Position numbers and translations under genes: made by a program
In this document: positions 1 through 6,182 of the stretch, piece by piece
How the letters are laid out: each line of letters begins with the position of its first letter
Numbering within the stretch: position 1 is the stretch's first letter
Notes under the pieces: model-generated
Told to the model about the DNA's origin: nothing
The model's database searches: none
What the model saw: only the letters and a program-made list of their open reading frames with translations
IMG/VR virus record: IMGVR_UViG_2657245634_000002
DNA length: 6,182 bases
Direction: 5' to 3' (one strand)
Source of the DNA: a virus
Taxonomy: Duplodnaviria > Heunggongvirae > Uroviricota > Caudoviricetes

Positions 1-114
1 GCCAAACGTAGCCGTTTACGCGGCAGGCTACCGGAAATCAAAACAATTGACGGCGAGATGATAAATTCATTTGCTAATTACTTGTTTTTGCCATGCTTAT
101 CCTGAGCGATAAGT

Positions 115-282
115 TCATCCATAAGGCTGTCTGCCACACTTGTCGCGTTTCTTCCAGCTGTGAACGGTTGCAACTTTCTCGCCCAGCATTTCAGCAATGC
201 GGGCTACACGGTATCCCTGAAAGTACAGCAGCATGGCCTGCCGACGGGGATCGAGATCTGCGGGTGTCAGTGTGGTGTTCAT
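115..282 (-). pseudogene. Possible truncated N-terminal fragment of terminase ATPase subunit (gpP-like), 55 codons then TGA
   Basis: Minus-strand ATG at 282 lies 142 nt upstream of and divergent from gene O, the position and orientation of gene P in P2. Translation MNTTLTPADLDPRRQAMLLYFQGYRVARIAEMLGEKVATVHSWKKRDKCGRQPYG looks like the HTH-like N-terminus of P2-family large terminases (recalled, not searched). All three minus-strand frames hit stops between 282 and 1, so no full-length P can be encoded here. Confidence 0.3.
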
Positions 283-328
283 GGCACAAACCTACAGCCT
301 TGAATGAAGGCTTTCCCCGCCTGCGGTT

Positions 329-346
329 TGTGTGGTAGTCGGTACA
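329..346 (+). promoter_or_regulatory. Candidate late-promoter activator (Ogr/Delta-type) site, TGT-N12-ACA, upstream of gene O
   Basis: Sequence TGTgtggtagtcggtACA at 329-346 matches the TGT-N12-ACA half-site arrangement of P2 late promoters. Its centre is about 55 nt upstream of a plausible start site near 390, with a weak -10-like CATAAG around 385-390 and the O start codon at 425. Confidence 0.35.
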
Positions 347-424
347 AATACCGCGCATTGTTTCACTGCCCCCATCACCGCAACCATAAGGCTCCAGTAA
401 GTTTTTTCTAACGGAGCACGGCTC

Positions 425-1258
425 ATGACAGTGAAAGCAAAGCGTTTTCGCATCGGGGTGGAAGGTGCCACCACCGACGGACGCGAAATCCAGCGTGAAT
501 GGCTGGAACAGATGGCAGCCAGCTACAACCCGGCGGTGTACACCGCGCTGATTAACCTTGAGCACATCAAGTCTTATCTGCCGGACAGCACCTTTAACCG
601 CTACGGCAAGGTGACGGCGCTGTTTGCTGAAGAAATCACGGAAGGCCCGCTGGCGGGCAAGATGGCACTGTATGCCGACGTTGAGCCAACGGAGTCCCTG
701 GTGGAACTGGTGAAAAAAGGCCAGAAATTATTCACCTCTATGGAAGTCAGCCCGAAGTTTGCAGATACGGGCAAAGCCTACCTGGTCGGCCTGGCTGCTA
801 CAGATGACCCTGCCAGTCTGGGCACTGAAATGCTGACATTCAGCGCCAGTGCAGCCCATAACCCGCTGGCAAACCGCAAGCAGAATCCTGCCAATCTCTT
901 TACCGCTGCAGAGGAAACGGTGATCGAACTGGAAGAAATCCAGGATGACAAACCGTCCCTGTTTTCCCGCGTCACGGCGCTGTTCACCAAAAAAGAGCAG
1001 TCAGACGATGCCCGGTTCTCTGATGTGCATAAGGCCGTGGAGCTGGTCGCCACTGAGCAGCAAAACCTGAGTGCGCGCACCGAAAAATCCCTGTCTGAAC
1101 AGGAAGAACGCCTGTCTGAGCTTGAGACAGCCCTGCAGGCACAGCAGACCGCCTTTAACGAACTGGTGGACAAGCTGAGCCATGAAGACAGCCGCCAGGA
1201 CTACCGCCAGCGTGCAACAGGCGGTAACGCCCCCGCTGACACTCTGACCAATTGCTGA
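425..1258 (+). CDS. O: Capsid scaffolding protein (P2 gpO family)
   Basis: 277-aa ORF with ATG start and GGAG 8 nt upstream. N-terminus FRIGVEGATTDGREI...INLEHI, central SMEVSPKFADTGKAYLVGLAATDDPASLGTE and C-terminal ATGG...TNC closely resemble P2 gpO as recalled. It sits directly upstream of the major capsid gene. Confidence 0.95.
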   Translation: MTVKAKRFRIGVEGATTDGREIQREWLEQMAASYNPAVYTALINLEHIKSYLPDSTFNRYGKVTALFAEEITEGPLAGKMALYADVEPTESLVELVKKGQKLFTSMEVSPKFADTGKAYLVGLAATDDPASLGTEMLTFSASAAHNPLANRKQNPANLFTAAEETVIELEEIQDDKPSLFSRVTALFTKKEQSDDARFSDVHKAVELVATEQQNLSARTEKSLSEQEERLSELETALQAQQTAFNELVDKLSHEDSRQDYRQRATGGNAPADTLTNC

Positions 1259-1274
1259 TGGAGCACAAAACCTG

Positions 1275-2333
1275 ATGAAGAAGAATACCCGCTTTGCTTT
1301 TAACGCTTACCTGCAGCAGCTGGCGCGTCTGAACGGTGTGGCAGTTGAAGAACTGTCCAGCAAGTTCACCGTAGAGCCGTCCGTGCAGCAGACGCTGGAA
1401 GACCAGATCCAGCAGTCCGCCGCATTCCTGACGCTGATTAACGTCACGCCAGTGACTGAGCAGTCCGGTCAGCTGCTTGGATTGGGTGTTGGCAGCACCA
1501 TTGCCGGAACCACTGATACCACCGCGAAAGAGCGTGAGCCTGTCGATCCGACGCTGATGGTCGATGTGGAATATAAATGCGAGCAGACCAACTTTGACAC
1601 GGTGCTGACCTACGCGAAGCTGGATCTGTGGGCGAAGTTTCAGGATTTCCAGGTGCGCATCCGTGACGCCATCGTGAAACGTCAGGCACTGGACCGCATC
1701 ATGATCGGCTTTAACGGCGTGAAGCGTGCGAAAACCTCCAACCGTAGCGAAAACCCGCTGCTGCAGGATGTGAACAAAGGCTGGCTGCAGAAAATCCGTG
1801 AGGATGCACCGGATCACGTCATGGGCAGCACCACCACGGGCGGTGAAACCACTCCGGGGGCGGTGAAAGTCGGGAAAGGTGGCGAATATGCCAACCTGGA
1901 CGCCGTGGTGATGGATGCCGTTAATGAGCTTATCGACGTGGTCTACCAGGACGATGACGATCTGGTGGTGATTTGTGGTCGTGAACTGCTGTCTGACAAG
2001 TATTTCCCGCTGGTCAACAAAGAGCAGGAAAACAGTGAAAAACTGGCTGCCGATATGATCATCAGCCAGAAACGCATGGGTGGCCTGCAGGCCGTGCGTG
2101 CGCCATTCTTCCCGCCGAATGCGCTGCTGATCACCCGTCTGGATAACCTGTCCATCTACTGGCAGGAAGACACCCGCCGCCGTTCAGTTATCGACAACCC
2201 GAAACGTGACCGGATTGAAAACTTTGAATCCGTTAACGAAGCCTATGTGGTTGAGGACTACCGCTGCGCCGCACTGGTGGAAAACATCCAGATTGGCGAC
2301 TTCAGCGCCGCCGCAGCAGAAACCGGAGCGTAA
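1275..2333 (+). CDS. N: Major capsid protein (P2 gpN family)
   Basis: 352-aa ORF. Motifs TRFAFNAYL, KFTVEPSVQQTL, LDLWAKFQDFQVRIRDAIVKRQALDRIMIGFNGVKRA, NLSIYWQEDTRRR and ENIQIGDFS match the P2 gpN capsid family as recalled. Position after O is conserved. Confidence 0.95.
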   Translation: MKKNTRFAFNAYLQQLARLNGVAVEELSSKFTVEPSVQQTLEDQIQQSAAFLTLINVTPVTEQSGQLLGLGVGSTIAGTTDTTAKEREPVDPTLMVDVEYKCEQTNFDTVLTYAKLDLWAKFQDFQVRIRDAIVKRQALDRIMIGFNGVKRAKTSNRSENPLLQDVNKGWLQKIREDAPDHVMGSTTTGGETTPGAVKVGKGGEYANLDAVVMDAVNELIDVVYQDDDDLVVICGRELLSDKYFPLVNKEQENSEKLAADMIISQKRMGGLQAVRAPFFPPNALLITRLDNLSIYWQEDTRRRSVIDNPKRDRIENFESVNEAYVVEDYRCAALVENIQIGDFSAAAAETGA

Positions 2334-2336
2334 TCC

Positions 2337-2987
2337 ATGAGCCTGAGTCCCGCACGGCAGCATCGCCTGCGCGTTCAGGCTGAACAGGCCGCCCGTGAGG
2401 GTGGCAGTGTTCGCCACGCGTCGGGCTATGACCTGATGCTGCTGCAACTGGCAGAAGACCGCCGCCGTCTCAAGGGCGTTCAGTCCACGGTGAAAAAAGC
2501 GGAAATCAAGGTGGAGCTGCTGCCGAAATATGCCGCCTGGGCGGAGGGCGTCCTGGCTGCCGGAGGCGCTCAACAGGATGACGTGCTGATGTACGTGATG
2601 CTGTGGCGCATTGATGCCGGAGATTATGCCGGGGCGCTGGAGATCGGGCGTCATGCCCTGCGTCATGGCTGGGTGATGCCGCTGGGTAACCGCAACGTGC
2701 AGACCGTGCTGGCAGAGGAAATGGCAGACGCCGCGCAGAGCGCAATACTTGCCGCCACCGGCTTTGATGCCGATCTGTTGTTGCAGACGCTGGAGCTGAC
2801 AGACGGTCTGGATATGCCGGACCAGTCACGGGCGCGTCTGCATAAAGCGATTGGCGCTGTCCTGAGTGAAAGCAATCCGGCTTCCGCCCTTAATCATCTC
2901 AACCATGCGTTACAGCTCGATCCCCGCTGTGGCGTGAAAAAAGACAAACAGCAGCTGGAGCGCAGACTGCGCAATGACAGCCGCTGA
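2337..2987 (+). CDS. M: Terminase small (endonuclease) subunit (P2 gpM family)
   Basis: 216-aa ORF starting 4 nt after the N stop, with GGAGCG upstream. Arg-rich N-terminus and conserved synteny O-N-M-L. Assigned by position and family resemblance. Confidence 0.88.
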   Translation: MSLSPARQHRLRVQAEQAAREGGSVRHASGYDLMLLQLAEDRRRLKGVQSTVKKAEIKVELLPKYAAWAEGVLAAGGAQQDDVLMYVMLWRIDAGDYAGALEIGRHALRHGWVMPLGNRNVQTVLAEEMADAAQSAILAATGFDADLLLQTLELTDGLDMPDQSRARLHKAIGAVLSESNPASALNHLNHALQLDPRCGVKKDKQQLERRLRNDSR

Positions 2988-3082
2988 CAGAACGTGCCCC
3001 CGCGCACGGGCGGCACGGGGTGGCGAAAGGCACTGCCACATCAAAACCCCGTCCACCGCCCTCTATTTCAGGAGAAAGCAGC

Positions 3083-3547
3083 ATGAAGTTTGTTGCGCCA
3101 GAACAGGCACCGGAACAGGCGGAAATCATCAGGAATACGCCGTTCTGGCCTGATGTGGACTTGTCGGAGTTTCGCAGTGTCATGCGCACTGACGGCACGG
3201 TGACGCAGCCGCGTTTAAAGCAGGTTGCGCTGTCGGCAATTTCGGAGGTCAACGCAGAGCTGTATGAGTTTCGCAGACGTCAGCAGATGCTGGGGTATGC
3301 GTCGCTGGCTGAGGTTCCGGCGGAACAGCTGGACGGCAAAAGTGAGCGCATTCAGCATTATTTCAACGCGGTTTACTGCTGGGCACGCGCCATGCTCAAC
3401 GAACGTTACCAGGACTATGACGCCACGGCGTCCGGTGTGAAGCGGGGCGAGGAACTGGCGGAAGCAAGCGGTGATTTGTGGCGTGACGCCCGCTGGGCCA
3501 TCAGCCGGGTGCACGATGCGCCGCACTGCACAGTGGAGCTTATCTGA
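3083..3547 (+). CDS. L: Head (capsid) completion protein (P2 gpL family)
   Basis: ATG at 3083 preceded by GGAG at 3071-3074. The ORF track's longer version begins at a GTG at 3020 with no RBS. Protein MKFVAPEQ...NTPFWPDVDLSEF...NAELYEF...DLWRDARWAISRV resembles P2 gpL. Its stop overlaps the X start (TGATGA). Confidence 0.9.
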   Translation: MKFVAPEQAPEQAEIIRNTPFWPDVDLSEFRSVMRTDGTVTQPRLKQVALSAISEVNAELYEFRRRQQMLGYASLAEVPAEQLDGKSERIQHYFNAVYCWARAMLNERYQDYDATASGVKRGEELAEASGDLWRDARWAISRVHDAPHCTVELI

Positions 3548-3750
3548 TGAAAGTGCGTGCGCATCAGTATGACACGGTGGACGCGCTTTGCTGGCGTCAT
3601 TACGGGCGCACGCAGGGTGTCACGGAGCAGGTACTGAAGGCAAATCCGGGGCTTGCCGAATACGGCCCCTTTTTACCTCACGGGCTGCAGGTGGAGCTGC
3701 CGGACATTCCGACCACCACCACCGTGCAGACCGTCCAGCTATGGGACTGA
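3547..3750 (+). CDS. X: Tail protein X (P2 gpX family, LysM-related fold)
   Basis: 67-aa ORF MKVRAHQYDTVDALCWRHYGRT...NPGLAEYGPFLPHGLQVELPDI, the right size, position and sequence character for P2 gpX. Start overlaps the L stop. Confidence 0.85.
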   Translation: MKVRAHQYDTVDALCWRHYGRTQGVTEQVLKANPGLAEYGPFLPHGLQVELPDIPTTTTVQTVQLWD

Positions 3751-3753
3751 ATT

Positions 3754-3969
3754 ATGACGCTTGAGCGAATCAGCGCCTTTATCACGTATTGCATCGCCGT
3801 CGTGCTGGCCTGGCTGGGCGATTTGTCCATCAAGGATGCCTCAACGCTGGGCGGCCTGATGATTGGTGTGCTGATGCTGGCTATCAACTGGTACTACAAA
3901 CACAAAGCCTACCAGCTTCTGCGCGACGGGCAGATCTCGCGGGAGGACTATGAATCCATCAATCGTTAA
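3754..3969 (+). CDS. Y: Holin, class II (two TMDs), pinholin-like
   Basis: 71-aa protein with two hydrophobic helices (ISAFITYCIAVVLAWLG and LGGLMIGVLMLAINWYY) and a charged C-terminal tail. Sits immediately upstream of, and overlapping, a SAR-type endolysin. It is shorter than the P2 Y holin and resembles the phage-21 S pinholin class in size and topology. Confidence 0.8.
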   Translation: MTLERISAFITYCIAVVLAWLGDLSIKDASTLGGLMIGVLMLAINWYYKHKAYQLLRDGQISREDYESINR

Positions 3970-4465
3970 ACGCTGCCTTGTCGGGGCCGTGCTGGCTATT
4001 GCTGCCACGCTGCCGGGTTTTCAGCAGCTTCACACCTCCGTGGAAGGGCTGAAACTGATTGCCGATTACGAAGGTTGTCGTCTGCAGCCGTATCAGTGCA
4101 GCGCGGGTGTCTGGACCGACGGCATTGGTAATACGTCGGGCGTCATTCCCGGCAAAACCATTACGGAGCGACAGGCAGCAGAAGGGCTGATCTCCAACGT
4201 GCTGCGTGTGGAGCGGGCGCTGGAAAGGTGTGTGAAGCAACAGCCGCCGCAGAAGGTGTATGACGCTGCGGTGTCGTTTGCCTTCAACGTGGGTACGGGC
4301 AATGCCTGCAGTTCCACGCTGGTGAAATTGCTCAATCAGCGGCGCTGGGCGGATGCGTGCCGACAGTTGCCGCGCTGGGTTTATGTGAAAGGTGTTTTTA
4401 ATCAGGGGCTGGATAACCGCCGTGCGCGGGAGATGGCCTGGTGCCTTAAAGGAGCTGGACTATGA
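3950..4465 (+). CDS. K: SAR endolysin, T4-lysozyme-like muramidase (GH24)
   Basis: 171 aa. N-terminal weakly hydrophobic Gly/Ala-rich segment KRCLVGAVLAIAATLPGF typical of a signal-anchor-release domain. Catalytic-triad-like spacing E-x8-C-x5-T in YEGCRLQPYQCSAGVWTDGIGNT. Downstream FAFNVGTGN...STL...LNQ...ACRQL.RWVY block resembles P21 R / RrrD-type lysozymes. Strong GGGAGGA RBS 4 nt before the ATG. Start lies inside the 3' end of the holin gene. Confidence 0.9.
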   Translation: MNPSIVKRCLVGAVLAIAATLPGFQQLHTSVEGLKLIADYEGCRLQPYQCSAGVWTDGIGNTSGVIPGKTITERQAAEGLISNVLRVERALERCVKQQPPQKVYDAAVSFAFNVGTGNACSSTLVKLLNQRRWADACRQLPRWVYVKGVFNQGLDNRRAREMAWCLKGAGL

Positions 4466-4890
4466 CGCGTGCGCTGGCAGTAGTGGTGGCGCTGGCACTC
4501 GTTGCGCTGGGCTGGCAGTCGTGGCGGCTTAACAGCGCCAGCCACACCATCGAAACGCAGCGCGCGGCGCTGAAAAGTAAAGCGCAGGAACTGACGAAGA
4601 AAAACAGCCAGCTGATCGGTCTGTCCATTCTGGCTGAAACCAACAACCGGGAGCAGGCGCGGCTCTACGCCGAAGCTGAACAAACCAGCGCACTGCTGAG
4701 ACAACGACAACACCGGATTGAGGAACTGAAACGTGAGAACGAGGATTTACGCCGCTGGGCTGATACTCCTTTGCCTGCTGACATTATCCGGCTGCGAAAA
4801 CGTCCGGTATTCACCGGAGGTGCAGCTTACCGTCAGTGGTTGTCCGCGAGTGACGCCGTGTCGGCTGGATCAGGCCGCGCCGCGCACTAA
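4462..4890 (+). CDS. lysB: i-spanin (Rz-like, P2 LysB family)
   Basis: 142 aa. N-terminal TMD ALAVVVALALVALGW, then a long charged predicted coiled-coil region (ETQRAALKSKAQELTKKNSQ...IEELKRENEDLRRW). ATG overlaps the endolysin stop (ATGA) with GGAG upstream. An out-of-frame lipoprotein gene is embedded at its 3' end. Confidence 0.85.
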   Translation: MTRALAVVVALALVALGWQSWRLNSASHTIETQRAALKSKAQELTKKNSQLIGLSILAETNNREQARLYAEAEQTSALLRQRQHRIEELKRENEDLRRWADTPLPADIIRLRKRPVFTGGAAYRQWLSASDAVSAGSGRAAH

Positions 4891-5023
4891 CGGTGATCTG
4901 AACGCATTGCTGGATGAAACGGAGGCCGCCTGGGCGGTCTGTGCAGACAAAGTGGACATGATTATTGCGTGTCAGGAGCGAAACAGTGAACAAACCACAA
5001 TCCCTGCGCCACGCCCTCAATAA
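4733..5023 (+). CDS. lysC: o-spanin, outer-membrane lipoprotein (Rz1-like, P2 LysC family)
   Basis: GTG start within lysB in another frame. Signal peptide with lipobox LTLSGC, a Pro- and Cys-containing mature region, short overall length. It overlaps the lysB 3' end and extends past it (overlapped rather than fully embedded spanin architecture). Confidence 0.8.
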   Translation: MRTRIYAAGLILLCLLTLSGCENVRYSPEVQLTVSGCPRVTPCRLDQAAPRTNGDLNALLDETEAAWAVCADKVDMIIACQERNSEQTTIPAPRPQ

Positions 5024-5417
5024 AGCAGTGCCTTATGTCCGTAATAACCCGGACAAACTGCATCTGTTTGTAGATAATGGTTCGCTGGTTGCCACCGGGG
5101 CCAGCTCCATGTCATGGGAGTATCGTTACACCCTGAACGTGGTGATAGAGGATTTCAGCGGCGACCAGAATCTGCTGATGGCCCCGGTTTTGCTGTGGCT
5201 GCGTGATAACCAACCTGATGCCATCAATAATCCGGCATTACGGGAAAAGCTATTCACCTTTGAGGTGGATATTCTGCGCAACGATGTCTGTGATATCAGC
5301 CTTAACCTGCAGCTGACAGAGCGTGTGGTGGTCAACACTGACGGCAGTGTGTCGAGCGTTGAAGCTATAGCGGAACCCGATGAACCTGAAGAAATGTGGA
5401 CGGTGAAACGTGGCTGA
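4986..5417 (+). CDS. R: Tail completion protein R (P2 gpR family)
   Basis: Protein ...KPQSLRHALNKAV...NPDKLHLFVDNGSL...RYTLNVVIEDFSGD..LLMAPVLLWLRDNQPD...ISLNLQLTER resembles P2 gpR. Preferred start is GTG at 4986 with AGGAG at 4974-4978. The ORF track's TTG at 4965 is an in-frame alternative. Overlaps the lysC 3' end. Confidence 0.85.
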   Translation: MNKPQSLRHALNKAVPYVRNNPDKLHLFVDNGSLVATGASSMSWEYRYTLNVVIEDFSGDQNLLMAPVLLWLRDNQPDAINNPALREKLFTFEVDILRNDVCDISLNLQLTERVVVNTDGSVSSVEAIAEPDEPEEMWTVKRG

Positions 5418-5859
5418 ATTGCAGAAGGTGGACGACTGGCTGAGTGCCTTGCTGGCGAATCTGGAGCCTGCCGCAAGAAGCCGCATGATGCGCCAGCTGG
5501 CGCAGGAACTGCGCCGGACACAGCAGCAGAATATCAGGATGCAGCGCAATCCAGATGGCAGCAGTTATGAGCCGCGACGGGCAACAGCACGCAGTAAAAA
5601 AGGCCGCATCAAACGCCAGATGTTTGCAAAGCTGCGCACCACAAAATACCTGAAAACTGCCGCCAGCGCCGATTCTGCCAGCGTGCAGTTTGCTGGCAAG
5701 GTGCAGCGTATTGCCCGTGTTCATCACTACGGCCTGCGAGAACGTATTCAACGAATTAATATGTCTATTAAGTATCCATGTAGAAAGTTGTTGGGAGTTA
5801 ATGAACAATTAATCATTGACTTAGAAAAATTATTAGTAGAGTATTTCGCTCAAAATTAG
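5410..5859 (+). CDS. S: Tail completion protein S (P2 gpS family); 3' end compositionally atypical
   Basis: 149-aa ORF whose GTG start overlaps the R stop by 8 nt, the same R/S overlap arrangement as in P2. Basic central region and VHHYGLRER motif fit gpS. The last ~35 codons (from about 5745) are AT-rich, unlike the rest of the gene. Confidence 0.85.
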   Translation: MAELQKVDDWLSALLANLEPAARSRMMRQLAQELRRTQQQNIRMQRNPDGSSYEPRRATARSKKGRIKRQMFAKLRTTKYLKTAASADSASVQFAGKVQRIARVHHYGLRERIQRINMSIKYPCRKLLGVNEQLIIDLEKLLVEYFAQN

Positions 5860-6182
5860 TACATCTGTGTGACAATATGCAACAGTTTATTCAGATTTTA
5901 CAAACTATTTCCACATGGCCGTTTGCTTTCATCTTTGGTCTATGTATTTTATATCGTCCTATAAATATGTTGTTTAGTAGATTTATTGAAAGTAATACGG
6001 CAAAAGCTAAATTAGGATTTGTGGAGCTAGAGATTGGAGAGCTAGCTAAAAAAGGAAGAGAGGCTGTTGATAATTTTAATGAGTTAACCATTGTTATGGC
6101 TAAGACTCGGTTGTTGGAGTTAGAGGTTACTAAAGAGAACTTTTCTGCAGCGTTTTCATCTAATCAGCAAGTTAAATTAAAT
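5745..6182. other. Abrupt low-GC segment: start of a horizontally acquired cargo (moron) region at the S-V variable locus
   Basis: By eye, base composition changes from well over 50% G+C across 1-5740 to roughly one third G+C from about 5745 to the window end. The boundary falls inside the 3' end of gene S, not in an intergenic gap. Confidence 0.6.
5877..6182 (+). CDS. Hypothetical membrane-anchored protein, first gene of low-GC cargo; 3' end outside window
   Basis: ATG at 5877 opens a frame that stays open for 102 codons to the window edge despite AT-rich sequence, where chance stops are frequent. Translation MQQFIQILQTISTWPFAFIFGLCILYRPINMLFSRFIESNTAKAKLGFVELEIGELAKKGREAVDNFNELTIVMAKTRLLELEVTKENFSAAFSSNQQVKLN has one N-terminal hydrophobic helix followed by a charged, helix-prone region. 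No family recognised. No clear Shine-Dalgarno; the start is 17 nt after the S stop. Confidence 0.5.
   Translation, partial: MQQFIQILQTISTWPFAFIFGLCILYRPINMLFSRFIESNTAKAKLGFVELEIGELAKKGREAVDNFNELTIVMAKTRLLELEVTKENFSAAFSSNQQVKLN

Follow-up and report, generated by a model that had tools for sequence, protein, structure and literature searches.

The 6,182-nt stretch of viral DNA analysed here, referred to as the window, carries at bases 134–137 a novel joint at which lambdoid prophage DNA gives way, inside the terminase gene P, to the late region of a P2/186-like prophage. A single genome, that of Escherichia coli O111:H21 strain 15A (NZ_CP077477.1), matches each of the two pieces at 100% identity; there they lie 465 kb apart and on opposite strands. 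On balance we slightly favour a real and very recent illegitimate-recombination breakpoint between the two prophages, arising most simply by an inversion of about 465 kb. A joint created during library preparation or assembly is the principal alternative, and both readings are weighed below.

The late region and the truncated terminase gene

The features on which the argument depends are given below, from left to right.

1–61, plus strand: 3' end of the lambdoid antitermination gene N, comprising the last 19 codons (PNVAVYAAGYRKSKQLTAR) and a TGA at 59–61
78–135, minus strand: 3' end of the lambdoid superinfection-exclusion gene sieB, comprising the stop at 80–78, the final 18 codons (ADSLMDELIAQDKHGKNK) and a single base of a Lys codon split by the break
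115–282, minus strand: chimeric ORF of 55 codons, comprising 48 gpP codons, Cys, GRQPYG and TGA
134–137: novel joint, with lambdoid identity through 135 and P2-like identity from 137, placed by three-way alignment and direct print-outs
137–282, minus strand: 5' part of the P2-like gene P, for the large subunit (ATPase) of terminase, with codons 1–48 and two bases of codon 49
283–424: divergent P/O late-promoter region, intact and 100% identical to the 15A prophage
425–1258, plus strand: capsid-scaffold/protease gene O, intact, the first gene of the late operon (Pfam Phage_GPO, E = 2.8e-113)
1275–2333: P2-like major capsid gene N (Phage_cap_P2, 3.5e-152)
2337–2987: small terminase gene M (Phage_term_smal, 2.3e-40)
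Downstream of M, to 5859: L, X, Y (holin), K (lysozyme), lysB/lysC, R and S
3950–4465: lysozyme gene
4462–4890: lysB
About 4775–5023: lysC (o-spanin) frame, overlapping lysB/R
Downstream of the end of S at 5859: start of an AT-rich cargo gene

Most of the window consists of the late genes, for morphogenesis and lysis, of a P2/186-like prophage. Assignment to the Peduoviridae follows from the gene order, P<->O-N-M-L-X-Y-K-lysB-R-S, together with the family-specific capsid, scaffold and small-terminase proteins. Every late gene here has its full length and a strong score for its own family; the annotated 15A prophage is collinear with this region at 100% identity, and relatives show a matching gene order. 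A protein identical to gpO was found in 1460 blocks of public assemblies and the gpS allele in 1212, and P adjoins O at every place listed from these two look-ups.

Within the P/O promoter region, a TGT-N12-ACA dyad at 329–346 occupies the site of the annotated activator (Ogr) binding site of P2; two such dyads occur in the window, which by themselves are not above chance. A promoter and terminator scan of bases 1–500 returned nothing exceeding the shuffled background. The window lineage has no lysA between the lysozyme gene and lysB, where a LysA of 125–131 aa is found in three close relatives (L003, L004 and L018). Beyond S, the GC content drops to about 0.29 over bases 5860–6182, and a 127-aa ORF starts at 5877; in relatives this ORF is followed by a 404-aa PcfJ-domain gene inserted between S and V, a position occupied in P2 by the AT-rich orf30. 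Matches continuing through base 6182 were found in only 5 of 5,426 complete E. coli genomes, against the 1212 blocks that carry the adjacent S allele.

The initial annotation, made from the sequence alone, had drawn attention to a short frame where gene P should be, and its description of that frame holds. A minus-strand ATG at 282 opens 55 codons that end at a TGA (117–115), and none of the three minus frames stays open as far as base 1, the first bases of their stop codons lying at 117, 99, 69, 30 and 18, at 80, and at 76 and 40. The peptide had been likened to a terminase N terminus, and it does match Pfam PF06056 Terminase_5 (gpP-like) with E = 3.3e-20 and 72 bits against a cut-off of 20.3 bits, covering positions 1–41 of the 58-position profile; NCBIfam contained no model matching it. 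The comparison with P2 gpP proposed at the time gave 60% identity (pairwise E 1e-14), and residues 1–48 are identical to those of the intact 588-aa gpP WP_001098431.1 (49 of 50 residues identical to its N terminus). The spacing between the start codons of P and O, which had been given as about 140 nt for P2, is 142 nt in the window (O starting at 425) and in close relatives, but 173 nt in P2 proper.

That P is truncated in this sequence was right, but a stub of 55 P codons overstates what is left. Codon 49 of the ORF encodes Cys rather than Trp, and the tail GRQPYG with its stop is encoded by lambdoid DNA, in a frame other than that of sieB. Because the joint lies at 134–137, the last seven residues, CGRQPYG, consist of the junction base and lambdoid DNA. 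The P fragment matches strains 15A and WAT at every base, and what it encodes is limited to most of the N-terminal helix-turn-helix domain. Intact relatives of gpP (about 588 aa) carry the three domains Terminase_5, Terminase_6N and Terminase_6C, whereas neither the ATPase (PF03237 Terminase_6N) nor the nuclease domain (PF17289 Terminase_6C) is present in the stub polypeptide. On the question raised initially, whether the element can still package DNA, the remaining part of P, having neither domain, could not do so.

With the stub as query, a homology search recovered no proteins but further gpP fragments, truncated or frameshifted, and the CGRQPYG tail occurred in none of them. Short N-terminal stubs of gpP are common in public data (P0121–P0148); four of them (P0129 and P0131–P0133) are frameshifted at an AAGAAAC run in codons 45–47, and P0121, P0123 and P0124 represent three independent breaks past residue 55–56.

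Two simpler accounts of the stub can be set aside. The first is that P is intact and that its stop stems from a sequencing-type indel or point error around bases 100–130, a check on which had been advised. Frameshifted stubs at the AAGAAAC run are common enough in public assemblies to make such an error plausible in principle, but P is continued in no minus frame, and DNA homology to P ends completely at 134–137, with identity to P stopping at 137 and 135 of 135 lambdoid bases following; this account is refuted. The second, in line with one option in the initial annotation, is that the window belongs to a cryptic P2 remnant of some age, in decay and long without P and Q. Elements of that kind do exist, L028 among them, and many short gpP stubs are on record; against this, the window shows not one substitution in 6046 nt relative to a prophage with intact P and Q, its late genes are full length with strong family scores, and the DNA to the left of the stub is a second prophage, identical to 15A at 135 of 135 bases, rather than host DNA. 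A decayed remnant is effectively refuted. The 6046/6046 identity and the intact late genes instead mean that the late region is pristine, and therefore that the break is either very recent or artefactual.

The lambdoid flank and the joint

Bases 1–135 of the window correspond to NZ_CP077477.1 1021337–1021471 on the plus strand (135/135), and bases 137–6182 to 1486960–1480915 on the minus strand (6046/6046). The end of the lambdoid N gene is identical to 1021337–1021397, the end of CDS WP_001440957.1, homologues of which carry the N-peptide Pfam family PF25694, and the sieB end is identical to the 3' end of the strain 15A sieB CDS WP_001066167.1. The convergent N and sieB 3' ends, with the full identity to the 15A lambdoid prophage, place this piece in a lambdoid immunity-left region. 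Lambda-like, HK140 and VT1-Sakai records among the matches listed are 96–97% identical over bases 1–135 and have N and sieB annotated at that spot, a context shared with many lambdoid and Stx phages. Of the 5,426 complete E. coli genomes, only that of strain 15A matched the lambdoid piece at 100%; both parents can therefore be assigned to one lineage, and not to a cross-sample mix. The window would then derive from a very close relative of 15A or from another sequence version of that strain.

In strain 15A, the lambdoid prophage is at icd and the P2-like prophage at ybjL; the latter has an intact P, encoding 588 aa, and an intact portal gene Q. Beside Q, strains 15A and WAT and several relatives carry a cargo of a DprA-like protein and a phosphoribosyltransferase (L002 787–2323; NZ_CP077477.1 1489638–1491174). 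In other relatives this place is taken by AIPR, GmrSD, a reverse transcriptase, putAbiC or DUF4145, which makes the Q-side position a variable hotspot. Separately, three variants of the lambdoid N protein (P0002, P0009 and P0011) are alike over their N-terminal 60–85 residues and unrelated at their C termini, which suggests that in lambdoid prophages the end of the N gene is a frequent place for mosaic or rearrangement joints, at its 3' side.

At the joint itself, the two parents have CC at 134–135 in common, whereas A136 is templated by neither, the lambdoid parent having T and all nine P2-like relatives compared having C at that position. Beyond this CC no stretch is shared at the joint, the longest common runs within 40 nt on either side being 5 nt, and homologous recombination was accordingly rejected. 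No Chi site lies within 1.5 kb of the joint, which disposes of a Chi-stimulated break. The initial annotation had also suggested that something was inserted into P just left of the window. Foreign DNA is indeed present, but it begins inside the window, at base 136, and is lambdoid rather than IS or host DNA. With N/sieB DNA as the flank and neither IS-like features nor meaningful repeats at the joint, of which one end is visible, IS insertion into P was discarded as well. An integrase-type att junction was likewise rejected, both breakpoints being internal to prophages: the lambdoid int and xis genes are about 6 kb from the breakpoint (icd being attB), and P is internal to the P2-like prophage, which borders host ybjL beside ogr and whose immunity end lies outside the stretch analysed. 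Just to the right of the lambdoid breakpoint is a motif, TTCCTGGCAAACC, that to our eye resembles a gix half-site. Crossover by a DNA invertase of the Gin/Cin type at a pseudo-site was dropped because the dinucleotide at which such a crossover would take place lies some 13 nt away from the joint.

The joint was found in no collection searched. BLAST searches with window bases 1–600 gave about 2,000 matching records among 5,426 complete E. coli genomes and 369 among 50,697 phage records; the P2-like matches listed begin at 134 or 137, and none spans the joint. No record in the plasmid collection spans it, and the exact 33-mer at window 118–150 had no match in viral, species-representative genome or metagenome contigs. 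Five ORFs that span or adjoin the joint, the 55-aa stub among them, were absent from a 15-billion-protein collection on exact look-up. The reciprocal joint predicted from the same exchange (...GCGGCCCATAGTCACCC and then, give or take a base or two, TTCCTGGCAAACCTAATG...) was sought as a pattern with 0–6 variable bases in three contig collections, viral, genome and metagenome, with no match.

Origin of the joint

As we reconstruct it, bases 134–137 would be a breakpoint joining two prophages that are unrelated to each other but belong to a single E. coli lineage, in essence that of O111:H21 strain 15A. The left side would come from the immunity-left region of the lambdoid prophage, with its convergent N and sieB ends, and the right side from the 186/P2-like prophage, entered at codon 49 of P, the two having been joined by recombination that was independent of homology or used 2 bp of microhomology. 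A single inversion of 15A 1021472–1486960, with its ends in sieB of the icd prophage and in P of the ybjL prophage, could account for this, and is proposed because the order and orientation of the pieces match it. The geometry is what we infer, since the left partner is visible over 135 nt only.

Several points count towards a joint present in the DNA of the cell. The sieB and P genes are dispensable prophage genes, so that the rearrangement would be free of cost to the host. No k-mer is common to the two parents at the joint; a graph-based assembler could therefore not have created the join, and the reads must contain it. Internal deletions and inversions occur in the same prophage family in other public assemblies (L020, L021, L025, L026 and L028), and E. 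coli has a ligase-A-dependent end-joining that uses microhomologies, as described in PMC4872102, citing Chayot et al. (2010).

Other points count against it. Neither the joint nor its reciprocal was found anywhere else, which leaves the reading without independent support, and the closest complete genome has an intact P. Base 136 is untemplated and homology is essentially nil; to our knowledge, E. coli is without classical non-homologous end-joining. The icd and ybjL sites of 15A are taken, from the K-12 map, to be on the same replichore, so that an inversion would flip 465 kb against replication, and flipping DNA in this way is usually counter-selected. Large natural and laboratory rearrangements mostly proceed via IS elements or other long repeats (PMC4173774). 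As for the inversion in particular, a random chimera looks inversion-type with a 50% chance.

Among the rearranged members of the family, L026 (5444–8341; GCA_917065395.1), at ybjL, has its capsid gene inverted, O and L/X fused or truncated, and tail genes deleted, and L020, L021 and L025 are P2-like prophages with tail-gene deletions. These four show natural or assembly-derived rearrangement within the prophage family.

The main competitor is a joint that is an artefact, either a chimeric molecule or read (for example, fragments ligated in library preparation) or a manual or computational mis-join, the real prophage being intact as in 15A; we regard this as a serious possibility, though not the probable one. 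In the nearest complete genome each half has a perfect counterpart, at two loci that are intact and apart; neither the joint nor its reciprocal recurs in any of the collections searched; and the pieces are joined across strands and 465 kb, which would be costly in vivo. The extra A136, between ...GCC and CACTTG..., would also fit ligation of an A-tailed fragment end. Set against these points, the lack of a shared k-mer excludes de Bruijn-graph misassembly, and a chimera at the level of reads would have to outcompete the true path. Both ends, moreover, fall in prophage genes; a random partner end would do so in roughly 10% of cases, a rough figure that takes prophage DNA to make up about one tenth of the genome and the sample not to have been enriched for phage DNA.

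A real joint might also have another geometry, either P having received a lambdoid fragment or sieB a copy of the late region from the P2-like prophage. This sub-case of a real joint, which we think unlikely, would put the remainder of P and Q shortly to the left, or an intact second copy elsewhere. The window shows a single joint and 135 nt of the partner, as an insertion would allow, and excised or replicating lambdoid DNA could supply free ends. An insertion, on the other hand, needs two illegitimate joints, against the pair that results from one inversion; on the lambdoid side its end falls within sieB, some 6 kb away from int/att, and is not an integrase product; and the joint has neither IS-like nor att-like features.

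Consequences and comparison with known systems

If the joint is real, P retains 48 codons of its N-terminal DNA-binding domain and would have lost the ATPase and nuclease domains. Splitting of the prophage would leave Q and the rest of P far from the late genes O to S. In P2, cos adjoins Q, and if the same holds here cos would have moved away with Q. The P2-like element would then be unable to package DNA or to excise as a unit despite the perfect late genes in the window: a freshly disabled prophage, without a terminase ATPase, whose capsid, lysis and tail genes are still perfect. Transcription from the lambdoid pL-N unit would enter the P2 late operon in sense orientation. More generally, a real joint would be a clean, homology-independent join of unrelated prophages, a rare class beside the rearrangements mediated by IS elements or repeats. 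If the joint is chimeric, the prophage is most likely intact as in 15A, and the finding becomes a quality flag on the source sequence.

A bolder version of the real joint, a working lambdoid/Peduoviridae hybrid, seems very improbable to us. The pL-N unit (N ending at 61) would drive O to S (425–5859), with their P2-type capsid, lysis and tail-completion functions, without Ogr upon lambdoid induction, and the reciprocal joint would give a SieB–gpP fusion. A precise reciprocal joint would yield an in-frame 714-aa SieB(1–175)–gpP(50–588) fusion; this match of frames was given little weight because it arises by accident in one case out of three.

Compared with the gpP family (Terminase_5, Terminase_6N and Terminase_6C; WP_001098431.1 and P2 NP_046758.1), the window is alike in the divergent arrangement with O and in the late-promoter region, but its stub has the N-terminal helix-turn-helix part only, and the last 7 residues are foreign. 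Cryptic P2 remnants are known in E. coli K-12 and B. In decayed P2-like remnants the deletions lie within one prophage and there are several lesions, whereas in the window the partner is an unrelated prophage. L028 (Logan ERR6503634 contig 398) resembles the window in having a short gpP N-terminal ORF beside O; it differs in that its P stub is 81 aa, the rest of P and Q are deleted and there are several internal deletions, the window being otherwise pristine.

Inversions between prophages occur in O157 strains, and the formation of lambda bio and gal transducing phages is illegitimate recombination involving prophage DNA. The prophage- or IS-mediated inversions of E. coli (LTEE, PMC4173774) have breakpoints in mobile or dispensable DNA, as here, and the outcome proposed for the window is likewise a large inversion that splits a prophage. 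The known inversions, however, use long homologous repeats (IS copies or similar lambdoid prophages), whereas the joint described here is non-homologous, with a 2-bp overlap and one untemplated base. Illegitimate recombination and alternative end-joining, described for E. coli by Chayot et al. (2010; cited in PMC4872102), resemble the joint in operating with little or no homology; most events reported are deletions that remove at most tens of kb around the break, whereas the window would represent an inversion-type join across 465 kb. Chimeric reads and contigs share with the window a unique junction of two perfect loci, no homology and one extra base, but this joint could not be produced by k-mer graph assembly and has both of its ends in prophages. 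Real or artefact, it is a local structural event of an ordinary kind, a new instance of such events and not a new biological system.
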